From: a virus
Taxonomy: Duplodnaviria > Heunggongvirae > Uroviricota > Caudoviricetes
Length of the DNA stretch: 34,410 bases
Direction: 5' to 3' (one strand)
Virus record (IMG/VR): IMGVR_UViG_2778261135_000004
The notes below the pieces were generated by a model, which did no database searches, was not told the DNA's origin, and saw nothing but the letters and a program-made list of their open reading frames with translations. The translations under genes were made by a program, and so were the position numbers. Below, in pieces: positions 1 through 34,410 of the stretch (positions are counted from its first letter, which is position 1; every line of letters begins with the position of its first letter).

Positions 1-318
1 ATGAAAAAGATAGCTGCTATATCATTAATTAGTATTTTTATTATGTCTGGTTGTGCTGTGCATAATGATGAGACAAGTATCGGTAAATTTGGTCTTGCAT
101 ATAAAAGTAATATTCAGCGTAAACTCGATAACCAATACTACACCGAAGCCGAAGCTTCTTTAGCCAGGGGCAGAATATCTGGTGCAGAAAATATAGTAAA
201 AAATGATGCAGCCCATTTCTGTGTTACTCAGGGCAAAAAAATGCAGATAGTTGACCTGAAGACAGAAGGTGCAGGATTACATGGCGTCGCTCGTCTGACA
301 TTCAAATGTGGAGAGTGA
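1..318 (+). CDS. yegR: Host small lipoprotein (YegR-like), 105 aa
   Basis: Complete ORF at window start; N-terminal signal peptide with lipobox (IFIMSGC); lies outside the att repeat, so host rather than phage. Symbol from recalled similarity to E. coli YegR, not from a search. Confidence 0.7.
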   Translation: MKKIAAISLISIFIMSGCAVHNDETSIGKFGLAYKSNIQRKLDNQYYTEAEASLARGRISGAENIVKNDAAHFCVTQGKKMQIVDLKTEGAGLHGVARLTFKCGE

Positions 319-476
319 GAATATTTTTTGGTAAGCGTCAAACATGCGCGTTCTGGTTGTGCTTAGCCGGAACCTGTGCGAGCACGATGCCGTTACGTGA
401 AAGGCATCGTGCTATGAAGGGAGATTCTATCGATGTGGTCAATGGAAGACGGTGACCAGGGATAGGGCTTATGCAT

Positions 477-503
477 AAAAAATAAGCCCGTGTAAGGGAG
501 ATT
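477..503. repeat. attL: attL core (27-bp direct repeat AAAAAATAAGCCCGTGTAAGGGAGATT)
   Basis: Exact 27-bp copy of the sequence at 32878..32904; immediately adjacent to int 3' end; matches the P2 att core as I recall it. Confidence 0.9.
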
Positions 504-582
504 TAGGGTGTCACCATTAGGGGCTTTCAACGGTACAATGCGGGTTTGAGCGGCATAAATTACCACTGAAAGCCCTTAAACG

Positions 583-1596
583 TTACTCTACTGTGGACAC
601 TGTGTGGACACTCTCAGCCTCAGTACCACCTCTTAGCGGATTAAGAGAAATGGCGTCCTGAAGGTACTCTGGCGCAAAATGAGCGTAAACCATAGTTTGC
701 TCAATCCGTGTGTGACCTAGTATCCGTTGTAGCGTGATAATACTTCCTCCATTAATCATGAAATGAGTGGCAAAGCTGTGCCTTAGTGCATGTGTGGCTT
801 GCCCCATTGGCAAATCCGGTTTTATTGCTTTCATTGTTCGTCTGAAGCGAGGGTAATCAGCATCAGGGAATAAAAAACCTCGTTTGTTATCCGCGATCAT
901 TTTGGCAACAGCCTCTGAGATCGGGACGGTGCGTGGTTTGTTTGTTTTCGTTTTAACAAACGTGACGCGGTTATGGATAATATTTTCTGCTTTCAAACGA
1001 GCTGCTTCTCCCCAACGTGCTCCAGTACTCAGGCAAAGAATCGCAATCTTTTTGTTGTCGCCGTCAAGAGCAGCAAGCAGTAAGGCAATTTCTTCCTGCG
1101 TGAGATAGCCTGTGTCTGGTTTTTCCTCCTTAAGCCTTTTTGTCCCTCTGATAGGGTGCTCACCAAAGAATAACTCCGCTTCAATCAGGGCTGTAAACAT
1201 GCCGCTAATACATGTTAAATCACGATTGATACTCGAAGGTTTAATACCCTGACTTCTTCGGGTGGCGCAGTACTGGCTGATAAGCGATTTCGTAATTTGA
1301 AATGCGCATGGGTCATTCGTTATTTTTGTGAAGATTTCAATTTTTCCAAGATTAGATCTCCCATGCTCTTCGTGTTTACCCTTTAAATCCCACCAGATCT
1401 GTGTCAGCTCCGACAGACGTCGCTTGTCTGTTGGTTTTGATAGCCATTCTTTATTGTGGTGGTTGTACAACGTGTATTTCTCGAAAGCGACAGCTTCGCT
1501 TTTCTTATCAAACTTCCTACGGATGCGTTTTCCATTACGTCCAGTAGGGCGGATGTCCACTTCATATCGACCATCATCGAGTTTTTTGATTGCCAT
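583..1596 (-). CDS. int: Tyrosine integrase (P2 Int-like), 337 aa
   Basis: 337-aa ORF adjacent to attL; C-terminal catalytic region with R..HxxR..Y motifs (ALRHSFATH..., MVYAHF); length and sequence recognisably P2 Int. Confidence 0.95.
   Translation of the reverse strand: MAIKKLDDGRYEVDIRPTGRNGKRIRRKFDKKSEAVAFEKYTLYNHHNKEWLSKPTDKRRLSELTQIWWDLKGKHEEHGRSNLGKIEIFTKITNDPCAFQITKSLISQYCATRRSQGIKPSSINRDLTCISGMFTALIEAELFFGEHPIRGTKRLKEEKPDTGYLTQEEIALLLAALDGDNKKIAILCLSTGARWGEAARLKAENIIHNRVTFVKTKTNKPRTVPISEAVAKMIADNKRGFLFPDADYPRFRRTMKAIKPDLPMGQATHALRHSFATHFMINGGSIITLQRILGHTRIEQTMVYAHFAPEYLQDAISLNPLRGGTEAESVHTVSTVE
592..611. promoter_or_regulatory. Putative Int arm-type binding sites (P' arm): two direct TGTGGACAC repeats 11 bp apart
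   Basis: Direct repeats TGTGGACAC at 592..600 and 603..611, one helical turn apart, next to the att core and overlapping the int 3' end; similar TGTGGNC repeats occur in the opposite arm at 32819..32837. Confidence 0.6.
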
Positions 1597-4165: not shown

Positions 4166-6422
4166 AGCCTCCGGGCGTTTTGTCCCTCCGTCAGCATTTG
4201 CCGCAGGCACCGGTAAGACGTTTACCGGTGCTTATGCATGGAACGCGCCACGTGAGGCTGTCGGGCGCGAAAGACCCCTTACACGTGACGAGATGCGTCA
4301 GGTGCAAGGTGTTTTATCCACGATTAACCGCCTGCCTTACTTTTTGCGCTCGCTGTTTACTTCACGTTATGACTACATCCGGCGCAATAAAAGCCCGGTG
4401 CACGGGTTTTATTTCCTCACATCCACTTTTCAGCGTCGTTTATGGCCGCGCATTGAGCGTGTGAATCAGCGCCATGAAATGAACACCGACGCGTCGTTGC
4501 TGTTTCTGGCAGAGCGTGACCACTATGCGCGCCTGCCGGGAATGAATGACAAGGAGCTGAAAAAATTTGCCGCCCGTATCTCATCGCAGCTTTTCATGAT
4601 GTATGAGGAACTCAGCGATGCCTGGGTGGATGCGCATGGCGAAAAAGAATCGCTGTTTACGGATGAGGCGCAGGCTCACCTCTATGGTCATGTTGCTGGC
4701 GCTGCACGTGCTTTCAATATTTCCCCGCTCTACTGGAAAAAATACCGTAAAGGACAGATGACCACGAGGCAGGCATATTCTGCCATTGCCCGTCTGTTTA
4801 ACGATGAGTGGTGGACTCATCAGCTTAAAGGCCAGCGTATGCGCTGGCATGAGGCGTTACTGATCGCTGTCGGGGAGGTCAATAAAGACCGTTCTCCTTA
4901 TGCCAGTAAACATGCCATTCGTGATGTACGTGCACGCCGCCAGGCAAATCTGGAATTTCTTAAATCGTGTGACCTTGAAAACAGGGAAACCGGCGAGCGC
5001 ATCGACCTTATCAGTAAGGTGATGGGCAGTATTTCTAATCCTGAAATTCGCCGGATGGAGCTGATGAACACCATCGCCGGTATTGAGCGTTACGCCGCCG
5101 CAGAGGGTGATGTGGGGATGTTTATCACGCTGACCGCGCCGTCAAAGTATCATCCGACACGTCAGGTCAGAAAAGGCGAAAGTAAAACCGTCCAGCTAAA
5201 TCACGGCTGGAACGATGAGGCATTTAATCCAAAGGATGCGCAGCGTTATCTCTGCCGTATCTGGAGCCTGATGCGCACGGCATTCAAGGATAATGATTTA
5301 CAGGTCTACGGTTTGCGAGTCGTCGAGCCACACCACGACGGAACGCCGCACTGGCATATGATGCTTTTTTGTAATCCACGCCAGCGTAACCAGATTATCG
5401 AAATCATGCGTCGCTATGCGCTCAAAGAGGATGGCGACGAAAGAGGAGCCGCGCGAAACCGTTTTCAGGCAAAACATCTTAACCGGGGCGGTGCTGCGGG
5501 GTATATCGCGAAATACATCTCAAAAAACATCGATGGCTATGCACTGGATGGTCAGCTCGATAACGATACCGGCAGGCCGCTGAAAGATACTGCTGCGGCT
5601 GTTACCGCATGGGCGTCAACGTGGCGCATCCCGCAATTTAAAACGGTTGGCCTGCCGACAATGGGGGCTTACCGTGAACTACGCAAATTGCCTCGCGGCG
5701 TCAGCATTGCTGATGAGTTTGACGAACGCGTTGAGGCTGCACGTGCCGCCGCAGACAGTGGTGATTTTGCGTTGTATATCAGCGCGCAGGGTGGGGCAAA
5801 TGTTCCGCGTGATTGCCAGACTGTCAGAGTCGCCCGTAGCCCGTCGGATGACGTTAACGAGTACGAGGAAGAAGTCGAGAGAGTGGTCGGCATTTACGCG
5901 CCGCATCTCGGCGCGCGTCATATTCATATCACCAGAACGACGGACTGGCGCATTGTGCCGAAAGTTCCGGTCGTTGAGCCTTTGACTTTAAAAAGCGGCA
6001 TCGCTGCGCCTCGGAGTCCTGTCAATAACTGTGGAAAGCTCACCGGTGGTGATACTTCGTTACCGGCTCCCACACCTTCTGAGCACGCTGCAGCAGTGCT
6101 TAATCTGGTTGATGACGGTGTCATCGAATGGAGTGACCCGGAGGTCGTGAGGGCGCTCAGGGGCGCATTAAAACACGACCTGAGAACACCAAACCGTCAG
6201 CAAAGAAACGGAAGCCCGTTAAAACCACATGAAATTGCACCATCGGCCAGACTGACCCGGTCGGAAAGAATGCAAATCACCCGTATCCGCGTTGACCTTG
6301 CTCAGAACGGTATCAGGCCGCAGCGATGGGAGCTTGAGGCGCTGGCGCGTGGCGCGACTGTAAATTATGACGGGAAACAATTCATGTATCTGGTCGCTGA
6401 TGAGTGGATAGGTTTTAGGTGA
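4155..6422 (+). CDS. A: Replication initiation endonuclease A (rolling-circle initiator), ~755 aa
   Basis: Begins MAVKASGRFVPP... at ATG 4155 (ORF track start 4113 is an upstream extension); contains the HxH-type motif (TPHWHMMLF) and the Tyr-containing region (YIAKYISKNIDGY) expected of P2 gpA-family initiators. Confidence 0.9.
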   Translation: MAVKASGRFVPPSAFAAGTGKTFTGAYAWNAPREAVGRERPLTRDEMRQVQGVLSTINRLPYFLRSLFTSRYDYIRRNKSPVHGFYFLTSTFQRRLWPRIERVNQRHEMNTDASLLFLAERDHYARLPGMNDKELKKFAARISSQLFMMYEELSDAWVDAHGEKESLFTDEAQAHLYGHVAGAARAFNISPLYWKKYRKGQMTTRQAYSAIARLFNDEWWTHQLKGQRMRWHEALLIAVGEVNKDRSPYASKHAIRDVRARRQANLEFLKSCDLENRETGERIDLISKVMGSISNPEIRRMELMNTIAGIERYAAAEGDVGMFITLTAPSKYHPTRQVRKGESKTVQLNHGWNDEAFNPKDAQRYLCRIWSLMRTAFKDNDLQVYGLRVVEPHHDGTPHWHMMLFCNPRQRNQIIEIMRRYALKEDGDERGAARNRFQAKHLNRGGAAGYIAKYISKNIDGYALDGQLDNDTGRPLKDTAAAVTAWASTWRIPQFKTVGLPTMGAYRELRKLPRGVSIADEFDERVEAARAAADSGDFALYISAQGGANVPRDCQTVRVARSPSDDVNEYEEEVERVVGIYAPHLGARHIHITRTTDWRIVPKVPVVEPLTLKSGIAAPRSPVNNCGKLTGGDTSLPAPTPSEHAAAVLNLVDDGVIEWSDPEVVRALRGALKHDLRTPNRQQRNGSPLKPHEIAPSARLTRSERMQITRIRVDLAQNGIRPQRWELEALARGATVNYDGKQFMYLVADEWIGFR

Positions 6423-20942: not shown

Positions 20943-23261
20943 ATGAGCACAAAATTCAAAACCGTTATCACCACTGCCGGTGCAGCAAAGCTGGCAGCGG
21001 CAACCGCACCGGGAGGGCGGAAGGTCAACATTACCACGATGGCCGTCGGGGATGGCGGTGGTAAATTGCCTGTCCCGGATGCCGGACAGACCGGGCTTAT
21101 CCACGAAGTCTGGCGACATGCGCTGAACAAAATCAGCCAGGACAAACGAAACAGTAATTATATTATCGCAGAGCTGGTTATTCCGCCGGAGGTGGGCGGT
21201 TTCTGGATGCGTGAGCTTGGCCTGTACGATGATGCGGGAACGTTAATTGCCGTGGCGAACATGGCCGAAAGTTATAAACCCGCACTTGCCGAAGGCTCAG
21301 GGCGTTCGCAGACCTGCCGCATGGTCATCATCGTCAGCAGTGTGGCCTCAGTGGAGCTGACCATTGACACCACAACGGTGATGGCGACGCAGGATTACGT
21401 TGATGACAAAATTGCAGAGCACGAACAGTCACGACGTCACCCGGACGCCTCGCTGACCGCAAAAGGTTTTACTCAGTTAAGCAGTGCGACCAACAGCACG
21501 TCTGAAACACTGGCCGCAACGCCGAAAGCGGTAAAGGCCGCGTATGACCTTGCTAACGGGAAATATACCGCACAGGACGCCACCATAGCGCGAAAAGGCC
21601 TTGTCCAGCTCAGTAGTGCCACCAACAGCACGTCTGAAACGCTCGCCGCAACGCCGAAAGCGGTAAAGGCAGCATATGACCTTGCTAACGGGAAATACAC
21701 TGCACAGGACGCCACCACAACGCGAAAAGGCCTTGTTCAGCTCAGTAGCGCCACCAACAGTGATTCTGAAACGCTTGCGGCAACGCTAAAGGCGGTAAAG
21801 GCTGCGTATGACCTTGCTAACGGGAAATACACTGCACAGGATGCCACCACCGCGCGAAAAGGTCTTGTCCAGCTAAGTAGCGCCACCAACAGTGATTCTG
21901 AAACACTGGCCGCAACACCAAAAGCGGTGAAGTCTGCCTATGACAATGCTGAAAAACGTCTTCAGAAAGATCAGAATGGTGCGGATATTCCGGGAAAGGA
22001 TACCTTCACGAAAAATATCGGTGCCTGTCGTGCTTATAGCGGCGCTTTGAGTACTGAAGCCGGAAACTGGACAACCGCTCAGTTTATTGAATGGCTGGAT
22101 TCCCGTGGTGCATTTAATCATCCGTACTGGATGTGCAAAGGCTCCTGGTCATATGCAAATAACAAAATCATTACGGATACCGGATGTGGTGATATCCACC
22201 TGGCTGGTTGTGTCGTCGAGGTCATGGGAATTAAATCTGCAATCACTATCCGAGTGACCACGCCGACAACATCAAGTGGTGGCGGTACAACCAGCGCGCA
22301 ATTCACTTACATTAATCATGGGGACGGCTACTCCCCCGGCTGGCGTCGTGACTGGAATCGTCAGGGCGACGAAATGACCGGAACGATTAATCAGGACGGC
22401 GGTAGCCAGAATGCCTATATGTCTACGGCCTTATGTTCAGGCACCAGAGGCGGCAAAAAATATCTCAGAAAGTTTCGTGGTGGAGAAGGAGACACTGTCT
22501 GGCATGAAACAGTACAGGGCGGGGTAGTTCGCTGGGCGACTGGTAATACTGATGCTCAGGAAGAATTATCACTCAGCTCCGCTTATGGTCTCCGTTCAAG
22601 AGGTGAGATTACATCACTCAGTGCTAATGGTCTGCGCATTGCTTATGGCAATTATGGATTCTTTATCAGGAATGATGGCGGCAGCACATATTTAATGCTG
22701 ACGGCCTCTGGCGATAAATTTGGGACATGGAACGGTTTAAGGCCGCTGACTATCAATAACGCCAATGGCGGAGTGTCAATGGGGCATGGCCTGAGTGTTA
22801 CAGGTGATATTGTCTCAAGTACCAAAGTACGTGCCGGTAGCGGGAAAAAGTTCACGGTCAGCAGCAGCAATACATCCACGAAGGAAGCCGCATTCAATTT
22901 GTGGGGAAACTCAAGTCGTCCGGTGGTGGCTGAATTAGGTGATGATGCAGGCTGGCATTTTTACAGTCAGAGAAATACAGATAACAGCATCACTTTTGCT
23001 GTTAACGGGCAGGTATCACCATCTAACTATAGTAATTTTGATTCACGCTATGTCCGGGATATCCGGCTTGGTGGTGCTGCCACATACAAACCTGCGAACA
23101 ATGGCATGACATGGACACATCAGGCACCGTCCGGGTGTGTATATTCCGGCATTATTGTTCAGGATACCGGCTCAAACTCTGCCGATAACATTGGTGGCGT
23201 ATATTACAGACCGGTGCAGAAATACATTAACGGGACTTGGTATAACGTGGCGCAGGTATAA
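20943..23261 (+). CDS. H: Tail fibre protein H, 772 aa, with tandem-repeat region and divergent C-terminal receptor-binding portion
   Basis: N-terminal region matches P2 gpH (MSTKFKTVITTAGAAKLAAATAPG...); the middle carries ~3.7 in-frame copies of a 44-aa repeat; the C-terminal half is unlike P2 H as I recall it and the protein is about 100 aa longer than P2 H. Confidence 0.9.
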   Translation: MSTKFKTVITTAGAAKLAAATAPGGRKVNITTMAVGDGGGKLPVPDAGQTGLIHEVWRHALNKISQDKRNSNYIIAELVIPPEVGGFWMRELGLYDDAGTLIAVANMAESYKPALAEGSGRSQTCRMVIIVSSVASVELTIDTTTVMATQDYVDDKIAEHEQSRRHPDASLTAKGFTQLSSATNSTSETLAATPKAVKAAYDLANGKYTAQDATIARKGLVQLSSATNSTSETLAATPKAVKAAYDLANGKYTAQDATTTRKGLVQLSSATNSDSETLAATLKAVKAAYDLANGKYTAQDATTARKGLVQLSSATNSDSETLAATPKAVKSAYDNAEKRLQKDQNGADIPGKDTFTKNIGACRAYSGALSTEAGNWTTAQFIEWLDSRGAFNHPYWMCKGSWSYANNKIITDTGCGDIHLAGCVVEVMGIKSAITIRVTTPTTSSGGGTTSAQFTYINHGDGYSPGWRRDWNRQGDEMTGTINQDGGSQNAYMSTALCSGTRGGKKYLRKFRGGEGDTVWHETVQGGVVRWATGNTDAQEELSLSSAYGLRSRGEITSLSANGLRIAYGNYGFFIRNDGGSTYLMLTASGDKFGTWNGLRPLTINNANGGVSMGHGLSVTGDIVSSTKVRAGSGKKFTVSSSNTSTKEAAFNLWGNSSRPVVAELGDDAGWHFYSQRNTDNSITFAVNGQVSPSNYSNFDSRYVRDIRLGGAATYKPANNGMTWTHQAPSGCVYSGIIVQDTGSNSADNIGGVYYRPVQKYINGTWYNVAQV
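21461..21960 (+). repeat. In-frame tandem repeat, 132-bp unit (44 aa), ~3.7 copies, within H
   Basis: Repeating unit KG(F/L)(T/V)QLSSATNS(T/D)SETLAAT(P/L)KAVKAAYDLANGKYTAQDAT..R seen directly in the H translation, and mirrored as an internally repeated antisense ORF (21473..21718); resembles the phage tail-fibre repeat found once in P2 H. Confidence 0.85.
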
Positions 23262-32476: not shown

Positions 32477-32557
32477 TGTTTTTATTTTATCTGTTTGTTT
32501 TATAAGGATAAATTAACTAAAATGGCACCATCAACAAAACCGGAAGAGGTGCTCGCG

Positions 32558-32776
32558 ATGTTTCATTGTCCTTTATGCCAGCATGCCGCACATGCGCGTA
32601 CAAGTCGCTATATCACTGACACGACAAAAGAGCGTTATCACCAGTGCCAGAACGTGAATTGCAGCGCCACGTTCATCACTTATGAGTCGGTACAGCGATA
32701 CATCGTGAAGCCGGGAGAAGTCCACGCCGTAAGGCCGCACCCGTTGCCGTCAGGGCAGCAAATTATGTGGATGTAA
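32558..32776 (+). CDS. ogr: Late gene transcription activator Ogr (zinc-finger), 72 aa
   Basis: Begins MFHCPLCQHAAHARTSRYITDTTKERYHQCQNVNCSATF at ATG 32558 (track start 32495 is an extension); CxxC...CxxxxC zinc-binding motif; last gene before attR as in P2. Confidence 0.9.
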   Translation: MFHCPLCQHAAHARTSRYITDTTKERYHQCQNVNCSATFITYESVQRYIVKPGEVHAVRPHPLPSGQQIMWM

Positions 32777-32787
32777 TTACAAACAGG

Positions 32788-32813
32788 AAGCCCCTCAGTC
32801 GAGGGGCTTTTTT
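32788..32813 (+). terminator. Rho-independent terminator downstream of ogr
   Basis: GCCCCTC-AGTC-GAGGGGC hairpin followed by TTTTTT, 12 nt after the ogr stop. Confidence 0.85.
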
Positions 32814-32818
32814 GTCGA

Positions 32819-32837
32819 TGTGGTCAATGTGTGGACG
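32819..32837. promoter_or_regulatory. Putative Int arm-type binding sites (P arm): TGTGGTCA and TGTGGACG, 11 bp apart
   Basis: Direct repeats at 32819..32826 and 32830..32837 related to the TGTGGACAC repeats near attL; lie between the ogr terminator and the att core. Confidence 0.55.
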
Positions 32838-32877
32838 TGACCAGAAATAAATCCTTTTATTTCATTGTATTACGCGT

Positions 32878-32904
32878 AAAAAATAAGCCCGTGTAAGGGA
32901 GATT
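32878..32904. repeat. attR: attR core (27-bp direct repeat AAAAAATAAGCCCGTGTAAGGGAGATT)
   Basis: Exact copy of 477..503; marks the right prophage-host junction. Confidence 0.9.
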
Positions 32905-33048
32905 ACACAGGCTAAGGAGGTGGTTCCTGGTACAGCTAGCATTTTATGGGTTATGTTTTTCAGCGAAACGGATGATAACCTTAATAAATGCAGCTGTATG
33001 TGATCGGTTTCTAAGAATTTTCCATCCGGGAAAAATAATCGAAATTAA

Positions 33049-34410
33049 TCACTTACCGTGGGGATTACGCGTGGTTTCCCCGGAGAAATTACGCATCAGC
33101 AGCGCGTAATTGAGCTCAAGATCCTGCGGGACCGGGAGCCACACAGTATAACCATCGCCTGGTGCTATCGGCATAGCTTCGCCTTTGGCGTTTTCCATGT
33201 GCTCAAGGGTAAAATTAATGTTGCCTTGCGGCGTCATCAGCTCAAGGCTGTCGCCAACGGAGAATTTATTTTTCACCGCTACCGCCGCGAGGTCCCCCTT
33301 GCGCTCACCGGTAAACTCACCAACAAACTGCTGGCGGTCAGAAACTGAATAACCGTATTCGTAGTTCTGATAATCGTCGTGAGTATGACGACGCAGGAAA
33401 CCTTCGGTATAGCCACGATGCGCCAGACCTTCCAGAGTTTCCAGCAGGCTGGTATCGAACGGTTTTCCCGCAGCGGCGTCATCGATAGCTTTGCGGTAAA
33501 CCTGTGCGGTGCGTGCACAATAGTAGAAAGATTTGGTACGACCTTCGATTTTCAGCGAATGCACGCCCATTTTGGTCAGGCGTTCTACATGGGCGATGGC
33601 GCGCAGATCTTTCGAGTTCATGATGTAAGTGCCGTGCTCATCTTCAAACGCGGTCATATACTCGCCCGGACGCTGGGCCTCTTCGATCATAAACACTTTG
33701 TCGGTTGGTGCGCCGATACCCAGCGTCGGCTCAACATTTTGCACCGGAATCGGCTCGTACTTGTGTACGATGTTGCCAACATCATCTTCTTTCCCTTCCT
33801 GGACGTTGTACTCCCAGCGGCAGGCGTTGGTGCAGGTGCCCTGGTTCGGGTCGCGCTTGTTGATATAGCCAGAGAGCAGGCAGCGACCGGAGTAGGCCAT
33901 GCACAGCGCGCCGTGAACGAAGATCTCGATCTCCATATCCGGCACCTGATTGCGGATCTCTTCAATCTCTTCCAGCGACAGCTCGCGAGAGAGGATCACG
34001 CGGGTCAGGCCCATTTGCTGCCAGAATTTCACCGTCGCCCAGTTCACGGCGTTAGCCTGCACCGAAAGGTGGATCGGCATTTCAGGGAAGTGCTCACGCA
34101 CCAGCATAATCAGCCCTGGATCGGACATAATCAGCGCATCCGGCCCCATTTCCACCACCGGTTTCAGGTCACGGATAAAGGTTTTCAGCTTGGCGTTGTG
34201 CGGTGCAATGTTGACCACGACATAAAACTTTTTCCCCAGCGCGTGGGCTTCATTGATGCCGAGCTGAAGATTTTCGTGGTTGAATTCGTTGTTGCGCACA
34301 CGCAGGGAATAACGCGGCTGGCCCGCATAAACAGCATCTGCGCCATAAGCGAAAGCGTAACGCATATTTTTCAGCGTTCCCGCCGGGGAAAGGAGTTCCG
34401 GTTTAAACAT
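33049..34410 (-). CDS. yegQ: Host U32-family peptidase-like protein (YegQ/RlhA-like), 453 aa
   Basis: Complete 453-aa ORF outside attR; G+C and sequence typical of enterobacterial core genes. Symbol from recalled similarity to E. coli YegQ, not from a search. Confidence 0.8.
   Translation of the reverse strand: MFKPELLSPAGTLKNMRYAFAYGADAVYAGQPRYSLRVRNNEFNHENLQLGINEAHALGKKFYVVVNIAPHNAKLKTFIRDLKPVVEMGPDALIMSDPGLIMLVREHFPEMPIHLSVQANAVNWATVKFWQQMGLTRVILSRELSLEEIEEIRNQVPDMEIEIFVHGALCMAYSGRCLLSGYINKRDPNQGTCTNACRWEYNVQEGKEDDVGNIVHKYEPIPVQNVEPTLGIGAPTDKVFMIEEAQRPGEYMTAFEDEHGTYIMNSKDLRAIAHVERLTKMGVHSLKIEGRTKSFYYCARTAQVYRKAIDDAAAGKPFDTSLLETLEGLAHRGYTEGFLRRHTHDDYQNYEYGYSVSDRQQFVGEFTGERKGDLAAVAVKNKFSVGDSLELMTPQGNINFTLEHMENAKGEAMPIAPGDGYTVWLPVPQDLELNYALLMRNFSGETTRNPHGK

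Follow-up and report, generated by a model that had tools for sequence, protein, structure and literature searches.

Why should the bacterial side of a prophage junction carry parts of a phage attachment site? The question is raised by a 34,410-nucleotide stretch of DNA (IMG/VR record IMGVR_UViG_2778261135_000004; the window, here and below, is this whole stretch) that consists of a P2-like prophage with host DNA on both sides. The initial annotation reported an exact 10-bp copy of the att core at 417..426 and an exact 15-bp copy of the phage P arm at 430..444, both within the 60 bp immediately outside attL. The coordinates and strings of both copies are confirmed. Two readings were offered: a scar of an earlier integration and excision, or of tandem lysogeny, and a secondary att site. 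An intrinsic bacterial sequence mimicked by the phage attP was named as a fallback. The analysis reported here leads to another answer. The stretch 427..476 probably derives from an ancient P2-like prophage, whose P arm, the side with the arm-binding sites for Int, it preserves in worn-down form. The features on which the argument draws are the following.

1..318, + strand: yegR, an ORF for a 105-aa lipoprotein-like product in the left host side (ORF and YegR annotation)
381..415, + strand: perfect 11-bp hairpin AGCACGATGCC / GGCATCGTGCT in the yegR 3' region, directly left of the 10-mer (sequence and fold)
417..426, + strand: 10-mer AAGGGAGATT, matching exactly the 10 bp of the att core nearest to P'
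424..453, + strand: near-invariant 30-mer ATTCTATCGATGTGGTCAATGGAAGACGGT (comparison across E. coli records)
430..461, + strand: probable decayed homologue of the P2 P-arm Int footprint (repeat search and P2 annotation)
462..476, + strand: probable place of the lost IHF site (alignment and P2 IHF annotation)
477..503, + strand: 27-bp att core AAAAAATAAGCCCGTGTAAGGGAGATT at the int-side junction, attL (identical to 32878..32904; annotated attP core of P2)
504..612, + strand: P' arm of the resident prophage, with arm-type repeats TGTGGACA at 592 and 603 (P2 annotation of Cox and Int P' arm sites)
583..1596, − strand: integrase of the resident P2-like prophage, 337 aa (ORF; 'site-specific integrase' annotated at the same junction in other lysogens)
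32522..32776, + strand: ogr of the resident prophage (translation; Ogr annotation under matches in phage records)
32790..32813, + strand: ogr terminator, directly upstream of the P arm (sequence; P2 annotates a terminator at the same place)
32815..32877, + strand: intact P arm of the resident prophage; two Int arm-type repeats (32819, 32830) precede the IHF site
32878..32904, + strand: 27-bp att core at the ogr-side junction, attR; also the 3' half of the cyaR terminator
32881..32966, − strand: cyaR (RyeE) sRNA gene (Rfam RF00112, 100.7 bits, full length; same match in the empty site)
33049..34410, − strand: yegQ (trhP), in the right host side beside cyaR (annotation)

Arm and core motifs in the host flank

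The att core coincides with the descending half of the cyaR terminator hairpin and its T-run. We take this core at the cyaR site to be locI, the preferred attB of P2. An inverted repeat, GGGCTTAT / ATAAGCCC at 466..490, spans the junction of host flank and core, so that the flank 3' of the cyaR T-run can pair back onto the 3' half of the terminator. Far from either junction, at 21443..21950, the late region of the prophage holds three tandem direct copies of a unit with a 132-nt period (244-nt reference, 80–84% identity).

Both copied motifs are rare within the window. The 10-mer AAGGGAGATT occurs at 417, 494 and 32895, which makes three copies against 0.07 expected, and none of 100 shuffles reached three. 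The 15-mer TCGATGTGGTCAATG is found only at 430 and 32815 with up to two mismatches allowed (0.10 expected). A repeat search lengthens the 15-mer pair to 416-464 versus 32801-32849 (71%, ungapped), and the similar stretch GACGGTGACCAG noted earlier after the 15-mer is a genuine likeness, with GTGACCAG common to flank and phage. At the other end of the flank, the identity of the core runs 8 nt further left (469-503 versus 32870-32904, two mismatches), and TTATGCAT at 469..476 still matches the core-proximal end of the P arm, TTACGCGT. When the 15-mer is left out, 445..476 aligns to 32830..32877 above shuffles (p = 0.001-0.007). Chance resemblance would be suggested by the shortness of the motifs and by the K-12 type of the 10-mer, which agrees with the core at only 8 of 10 positions. 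The 15-mer and its extended collinear homology, at the right distance and in the right orientation from the core, go far beyond what chance provides, and coincidence as an account of the flank is extremely unlikely. It is excluded for 430..476 but may apply to the 10-mer alone.

The likeness extends to the organization of the arm. The arm-type motif TGTGGNCN has one copy in the flank (434) and two in each of the prophage arms, P' (592 and 603) and P (32819 and 32830). In the P2 reference record, the binding site labelled 'Int, P arm' is TCGATGTGGTCAATGTGTGGACGTGACC, followed by the IHF site and then by the core. The stretch 430..457 is thus homologous to an annotated Int footprint. The published consensus of P2-type arm repeats is tgTGGaCa (PMC3448106). 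As in the P arm of P2 attP, the flank has an intact repeat of this type (TGTGGTCA, 434..441), is collinear with the Int footprint and with known P arms, and stands on the same side of, and in the same orientation to, the 27-bp core that it adjoins and that forms the cyaR terminator. It differs from that arm in three respects. (i) The second repeat, TGTGGACG, is changed to GAAGACGG, leaving only TGTGGTCA at 434 of the two direct repeats of a functional P arm. (ii) The IHF site between the repeats and the core is not kept: approximately 16-17 nt of the A/T-rich element are gone, and GGGATAGGGC stands there instead. (iii) The arm is 46 nt long, whereas the phage P arm has 63 nt. Judged by sequence, the remnant would fail the features required of a working P arm.

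The 10-mer is a separate problem. The 27-mer that ends at 426 agrees with the core at 15 of 27 positions, a score equalled or bettered by 59 other 27-mers in the window, and only its contiguous 10/10 stretch is unusual. The initial annotation raised the possibility that a secondary att site lies here, with 400..426 as a pseudo-core used by P2-like phages. The perfect identity to the P'-proximal end of the core speaks for such a site. Against it stand the poor match over the full core, the polymorphism of the 10-mer, and the position of the junction, since in every listed lysogen the query is divided at the true core (469-503). That proposal is hardly credible. In the sampled E. coli the 10-mer has the alleles AAGGGAGATT, AAGGAGGATT (K-12), AAGGAGTATT and AAGGGGGATT; the surrounding 30-mer, 404..433, is exact in 2586/5415 records (48%) and has two mismatches in 2122. 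Because of this polymorphism the 10/10 match may not be the ancestral state. The 8/10 match of the K-12-type allele is no more than chance would give near any site. An alignment of the DNA to the left of the 10-mer with P arm and core was not significant (371..416 versus 32850..32894, p = 0.1-0.6) and lends no support to a model with two stacked P-O units. It also means that a simple history with one deletion does not explain AAGGGAGATT. An ancestral 8/10 state would put the resemblance at chance level, and an ancestral 10/10 state would make the 10-mer the probable stub of one more core copy, belonging to an additional layer; we weigh these alternatives about equally. The chance that AAGGGAGATT at 417..426 is left over from such a core copy is even or somewhat short of even.

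The flank across E. coli and its relatives

The empty site was rebuilt as 1..503 joined to 32905..33404 and was searched in 5,426 complete E. coli genomes. Prophage-free strains (E2865 and others) are 100% identical to it, and in 4565 of the 5426 genomes at least 80% of its length is found together at a single place. The 72-mer 405..476 is present in 5414/5426, essentially always as a single copy. Comparison with unoccupied sites, which the initial annotation itself had proposed, finds the identical 60 bp there, and its reading does not survive in the form given. What stands is the kind of event: the flank appears to be a scar, but its presence in nearly every genome rules against this prophage, tandem lysogeny or a recent excision as the source. 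In the strain-level version of this reading, the resident or a sister phage integrated and left, or lysogenized in tandem, in this lineage; a partial core and a partial P arm beside attL could then be leftovers of an imprecise earlier event. Such a history has an extremely low probability in view of the 5414 genomes, of the full identity in unoccupied sites, and of the same sequence to the left of the K-12 ogr-D' remnant.

The K-12 locus shows the order of events. In MG1655 the same flank comes first, and after it a partial core (AAAAAAATAAGCCCGTGTA), part of the D gene, ogrK, an intact P arm, the full core and cyaR. The flank thus lies outside the K-12 remnant and predates it. The left end of the ogr-D' remnant (L002, about 780..800) is a deletion junction inside the att core, at which AAAAAAATAAGCCCGTGTA is joined to the D fragment, so that two scar layers are stacked in K-12. 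The K-12 layout recurs in the GenBank entry 'Phage TP'. Variation is also seen further left: in some E. coli (AR_0086, L003 619..790; more matches) an AT-rich insert of about 170 bp directly follows the yegR stop codon.

Comparison with other species defines the insertion of which the flank is a part. The yegQ region was taken from 80 other Enterobacteriaceae species. In approximately 48 of them the end of cyaR lies 75-145 nt from the yegS start codon, and these include Escherichia sp. E1V33, whose YegQ is 99% identical. The corresponding distance in E. coli is 890 nt. Homology of E. coli to E1V33 is broken precisely where the core ends, at its last T, and picks up again upstream of yegS, at CCTC(C)GACTTTCATCC. 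The longer spacer and the exact break at the core end together indicate that E. coli has an insertion of about 800 bp, termed the yegR islet, precisely at the P2 core. At an otherwise ancestral cyaR-yegS site, yegR or arm-like DNA was found in none of the 80 species. The age of the insertion is only loosely bounded by this comparison, which holds just two non-coli Escherichia genomes. The arm remnant makes up the first 46 bp of the islet, and yegR is the only gene of this E. coli-specific segment between yegS and the cyaR terminator.

Had the islet arrived by site-specific insertion, a second core would once have been expected beside the yegS upstream region. When the alignment is anchored at the boundary, a weak likeness to the core emerges at the far end of the islet (p = 0.004-0.02 against shuffles, p = 0.001-0.003 against genomic segments). 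A stringent local alignment gave no significant second core at this end, and the core-like similarity is suggestive only. Within the islet no phage genes were found: of 50,697 phage records only two match, and both include host flank. The same records hold no homologue of YegR, and a profile scan gave no Pfam-A match above the cut-off; the family PF27694 is given only in precomputed annotations. Relatives of YegR (47-82% identity) occur in unrelated chromosomal or IS-rich contexts. On these grounds, a homology-based case for yegR and its islet as phage-borne was rejected, and the link of yegR to a phage is positional only. Genes of the YegR family lie in at least four unrelated neighbourhoods (L094-L104), one of them IS-rich and beside an MFS transporter in Enterobacter sp. 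BIDMC 29, another between glutaminase and nitroreductase/ivy. A gene of this type looks mobile, and the locus suggests that yegR may be an orphan gene delivered by a mobile element.

Scars at the cyaR terminator and the direction of transfer

P arms of the same type are common among P2-like phages. Matches to the P arm were found in 93 P2-like phage records (Escherichia, Yersinia, Klebsiella, Salmonella). Many of these extend only to window position 32865, which suggests that those phages may have different cores. The same P arm stands beside cyaR in prophages of Citrobacter, Enterobacter, Scandinavium and others. The string GTGACCAG is common to the E. coli flank and the E. coli P2 lineage and is variable in other phages. 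This last observation could be turned round. The sequence might be ancestral E. coli DNA that P2 captured as its P arm, for example when an aberrant excision from attL placed B' DNA beside the phage core, as could happen in principle, or that the phage evolved to mimic. Transfer from host to phage is nevertheless very unlikely. Outgroups with the ancestral cyaR-yegS arrangement are without the sequence, P2-like phages of other genera conserve the complete arm, two repeats and IHF site included, and the host copy is the degraded one, having lost one repeat and the IHF site. The direction is thus from phage to host, and on the sequences compared the host most likely acquired the arm from a phage. 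The fallback of the initial annotation, by which attP mimics an intrinsic bacterial sequence, fails for the same two reasons: the outgroups are without the sequence and the P arm is a feature of the whole phage family.

The preferred reading, a worn-down P arm, can be set out as a sequence of steps. (i) An ancestor of E. coli would have been lysogenized by a P2-like phage at the cyaR terminator. (ii) This prophage would then have been deleted almost wholly, leaving the islet of about 800 bp between the cyaR terminator and the yegS upstream region. We infer that the islet, yegR included, arrived with the ancient phage. (iii) The cyaR-proximal end of the islet would be a core followed by a P-arm remnant, in other words a scar of the attR type (P-O-B). 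(iv) The core beside cyaR was presumably kept intact as the terminator of the sRNA. (v) Present-day P2 phages would take that core as attB, so that the modern attL is composed of old P arm, core and P'. The phage-to-host direction and the near-universal presence in E. coli together imply an event that is old and close to fixed. At the E. coli cyaR site, the 'bacterial' arm of attB would thus itself be old phage DNA, and for this reason the attL of every P2 lysogen there would look like a crippled attP.

Other genomes show comparable decay at the same place. Two P2-like prophages at cyaR (L085 and L069) have ogr and D, with a cargo ORF between the P arm and ogr. In Citrobacter youngae (L056) the P arm, a cargo ORF and ogr are followed by D', of which only aa 1-89 are kept. 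In Enterobacter sp. L079 the core, the P arm and two cargo ORFs are followed directly by yegS, and no match to Ogr, D or Int was found in this scar. These arrangements suggest an att-proximal cargo slot in P2-like prophages at cyaR. The L079 scar is the closest analogue of the E. coli islet, and by this analogy it is plausible that yegR was att-proximal cargo. The ORFs between P arm and ogr or yegS in these other genera are unrelated (L085 4834..5109, L056 4838..5443, L079 5173..6079); their products are membrane-like proteins of 91 and 201 aa and a soluble protein of 201 aa. The type strain of E. albertii, NBRC 107761 (L009, 4533..4900), retains the core next to the proximal half of a P2-type arm. 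This half comprises an IHF-like site and one GTCCAC repeat and then breaks into a putative IS-type fragment. By its sequence, it would be an independent arm-only scar that was truncated differently from the one in E. coli.

In every parallel case (K-12, C. youngae, L079 and E. albertii) what has survived is the cyaR side, and decay has always spared the end with the terminator. Selection for an intact sRNA terminator would fit this pattern. The cyaR terminator is a hotspot for more than one element. Several Enterobacter genomes (L007, L066, L072, L076, L080, L082; about 4533..5167) have a different putative element or remnant at the cyaR core, with a spacer of 634 or 626 nt that is apparently coding on the reverse strand. 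Yet another element, of 750-830 nt, occupies the core in Kluyvera (L031, L033, L048). One of the Enterobacter records, L007, titled Enterobacter hormaechei B17-3, has a YegQ 100% identical to that of the window and the E. coli-type core variant TTACACGGGC; it could be a mislabelled genome or reflect a recent transfer.

Conservation of the flank and comparison with known systems

Is the arm remnant still of use to phage or host? Part of it is strongly conserved. The 30-mer 424..453 is identical in 5236/5415 records (96.7%), compared with 48% for 404..433, and the 72-mer 405..476 is fully identical in 1352 records (25%). Nine sampled alleles have 26 variable positions in 137 nt, and their longest SNP-free run is 424..453 (scan-corrected p = 0.02). 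This invariance is only suggestive of constraint, and it is not as expected of a fully neutral relic. The homology block 430..461, which had been specified beforehand, showed no depletion of variable sites (four sites, p = 0.21). Searches of the rebuilt empty site for a promoter, a terminator or an Rfam family found only cyaR and its terminator. A small ORF of 27 aa downstream of cyaR in the empty site was considered and rejected, as common 1-nt and 12-nt indels break its frame. The conservation of 424..453 is thus accounted for by no promoter, terminator, Rfam family or stable ORF.

RNA structure was considered as well. The RNA fold of 319..476 has a free energy of -59.3 kcal/mol (z = -3.55). 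No covariation in support of the fold was found among the sampled alleles, and in the G454T allele the inner stem is disrupted. With the allelic C-to-T change at 390, the hairpin at 381..415 can still pair on the + strand, but only through a G-U pair, a hint of a structure in the yegR 3' UTR.

A functional role would most naturally involve the integrase. The arm repeat, with or without the AAGGGAGATT half-core, might bind P2 Int, and by aiding the preference for this attB or by altering attL it might be under selection. The perfect-consensus repeat TGTGGTCA 36 bp from the core speaks for such a role, and the conservation of 424..453 agrees with it. Several observations disagree: 430..461 shows no shortage of variable sites, neither the second repeat nor the IHF site survives, and host selection for a phage-binding site is hard to see. 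The remnant is also open to insertions. Strain KY 1497 (L092) has 12 nt, TCAATCCGTCTC, inserted at about 462, and the P2 lysogen LB858871 (L093, 1..242) has an IS3-family element (by annotation) directly left of GTGGTCAATGG inside the arm remnant; insertions are therefore tolerated there. A selected accessory element appears unlikely on balance, and there is a similarly small chance that the surviving repeat still binds Int. Slightly less likely again is the specific form in which the near-invariant 424..453 would recruit the N-terminal domain of P2 Int and make the cyaR site an 'arm-assisted attB'. With the second repeat and most of the IHF site lost, the remnant is probably inert in recombination, and inertness is the most likely state overall. 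Were an arm-assisted attB to exist, it could explain the strong site preference of P2 or tune prophage stability at this site, and the fossil of one phage would be influencing where its descendants integrate.

Only if integrase still binds the remnant would the practical consequences be more than modest. Extra arm and core motifs beside a junction can mislead automated callers of att sites and prophage boundaries. The main interest lies in a layered history at one sRNA terminator, in which an old arm scar would have been followed by the K-12 ogr-D' remnant and then by current prophages. A literature search found no description of the arm-like flank; key older papers on the P2 att site were outside that search, and the scar, apparently unreported, may have been noted before. 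The original description of the cryptic P2 remnant in K-12 is reportedly that of Barreiro & Haggard-Ljungquist in 1992. In its table of mobile elements, the E. coli W genome paper has cyaR as the P2 insertion site, enters the K-12 'ogr-D'' there, and scores strain Crooks '-', that is no element (PMC3032704). With Crooks scored in this way, the older arm scar was not counted there as a trace of a mobile element. Repeated insertions at another locus, sdsR, have also been noted (PMC3333887).

The arm scar is a further example of a familiar process, the decay of prophages at an sRNA terminator. Its nearest relative is the K-12 remnant (ogrK, yegZ/D', attR). The two share locus and orientation, and both keep the attR side, with P arm and intact core, and have lost the int side. 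The K-12 remnant is restricted to certain strains, is about 630 bp long and more than 95% P2-like, and contains ogr and part of D. The scar described here has about 46 bp of arm and no phage gene, is close to fixed, and lies to the left of the K-12 remnant as an older layer. A second comparison is with the 'grounded' prophage islets found at the 3' ends of sRNA and tRNA genes. In these too, insertion is exactly at the sRNA terminator and regenerates the sRNA 3' end, and only an orphan gene and att-proximal DNA are kept. The yegR islet differs from them in that its only phage-diagnostic piece is the arm site of the recombinase itself.
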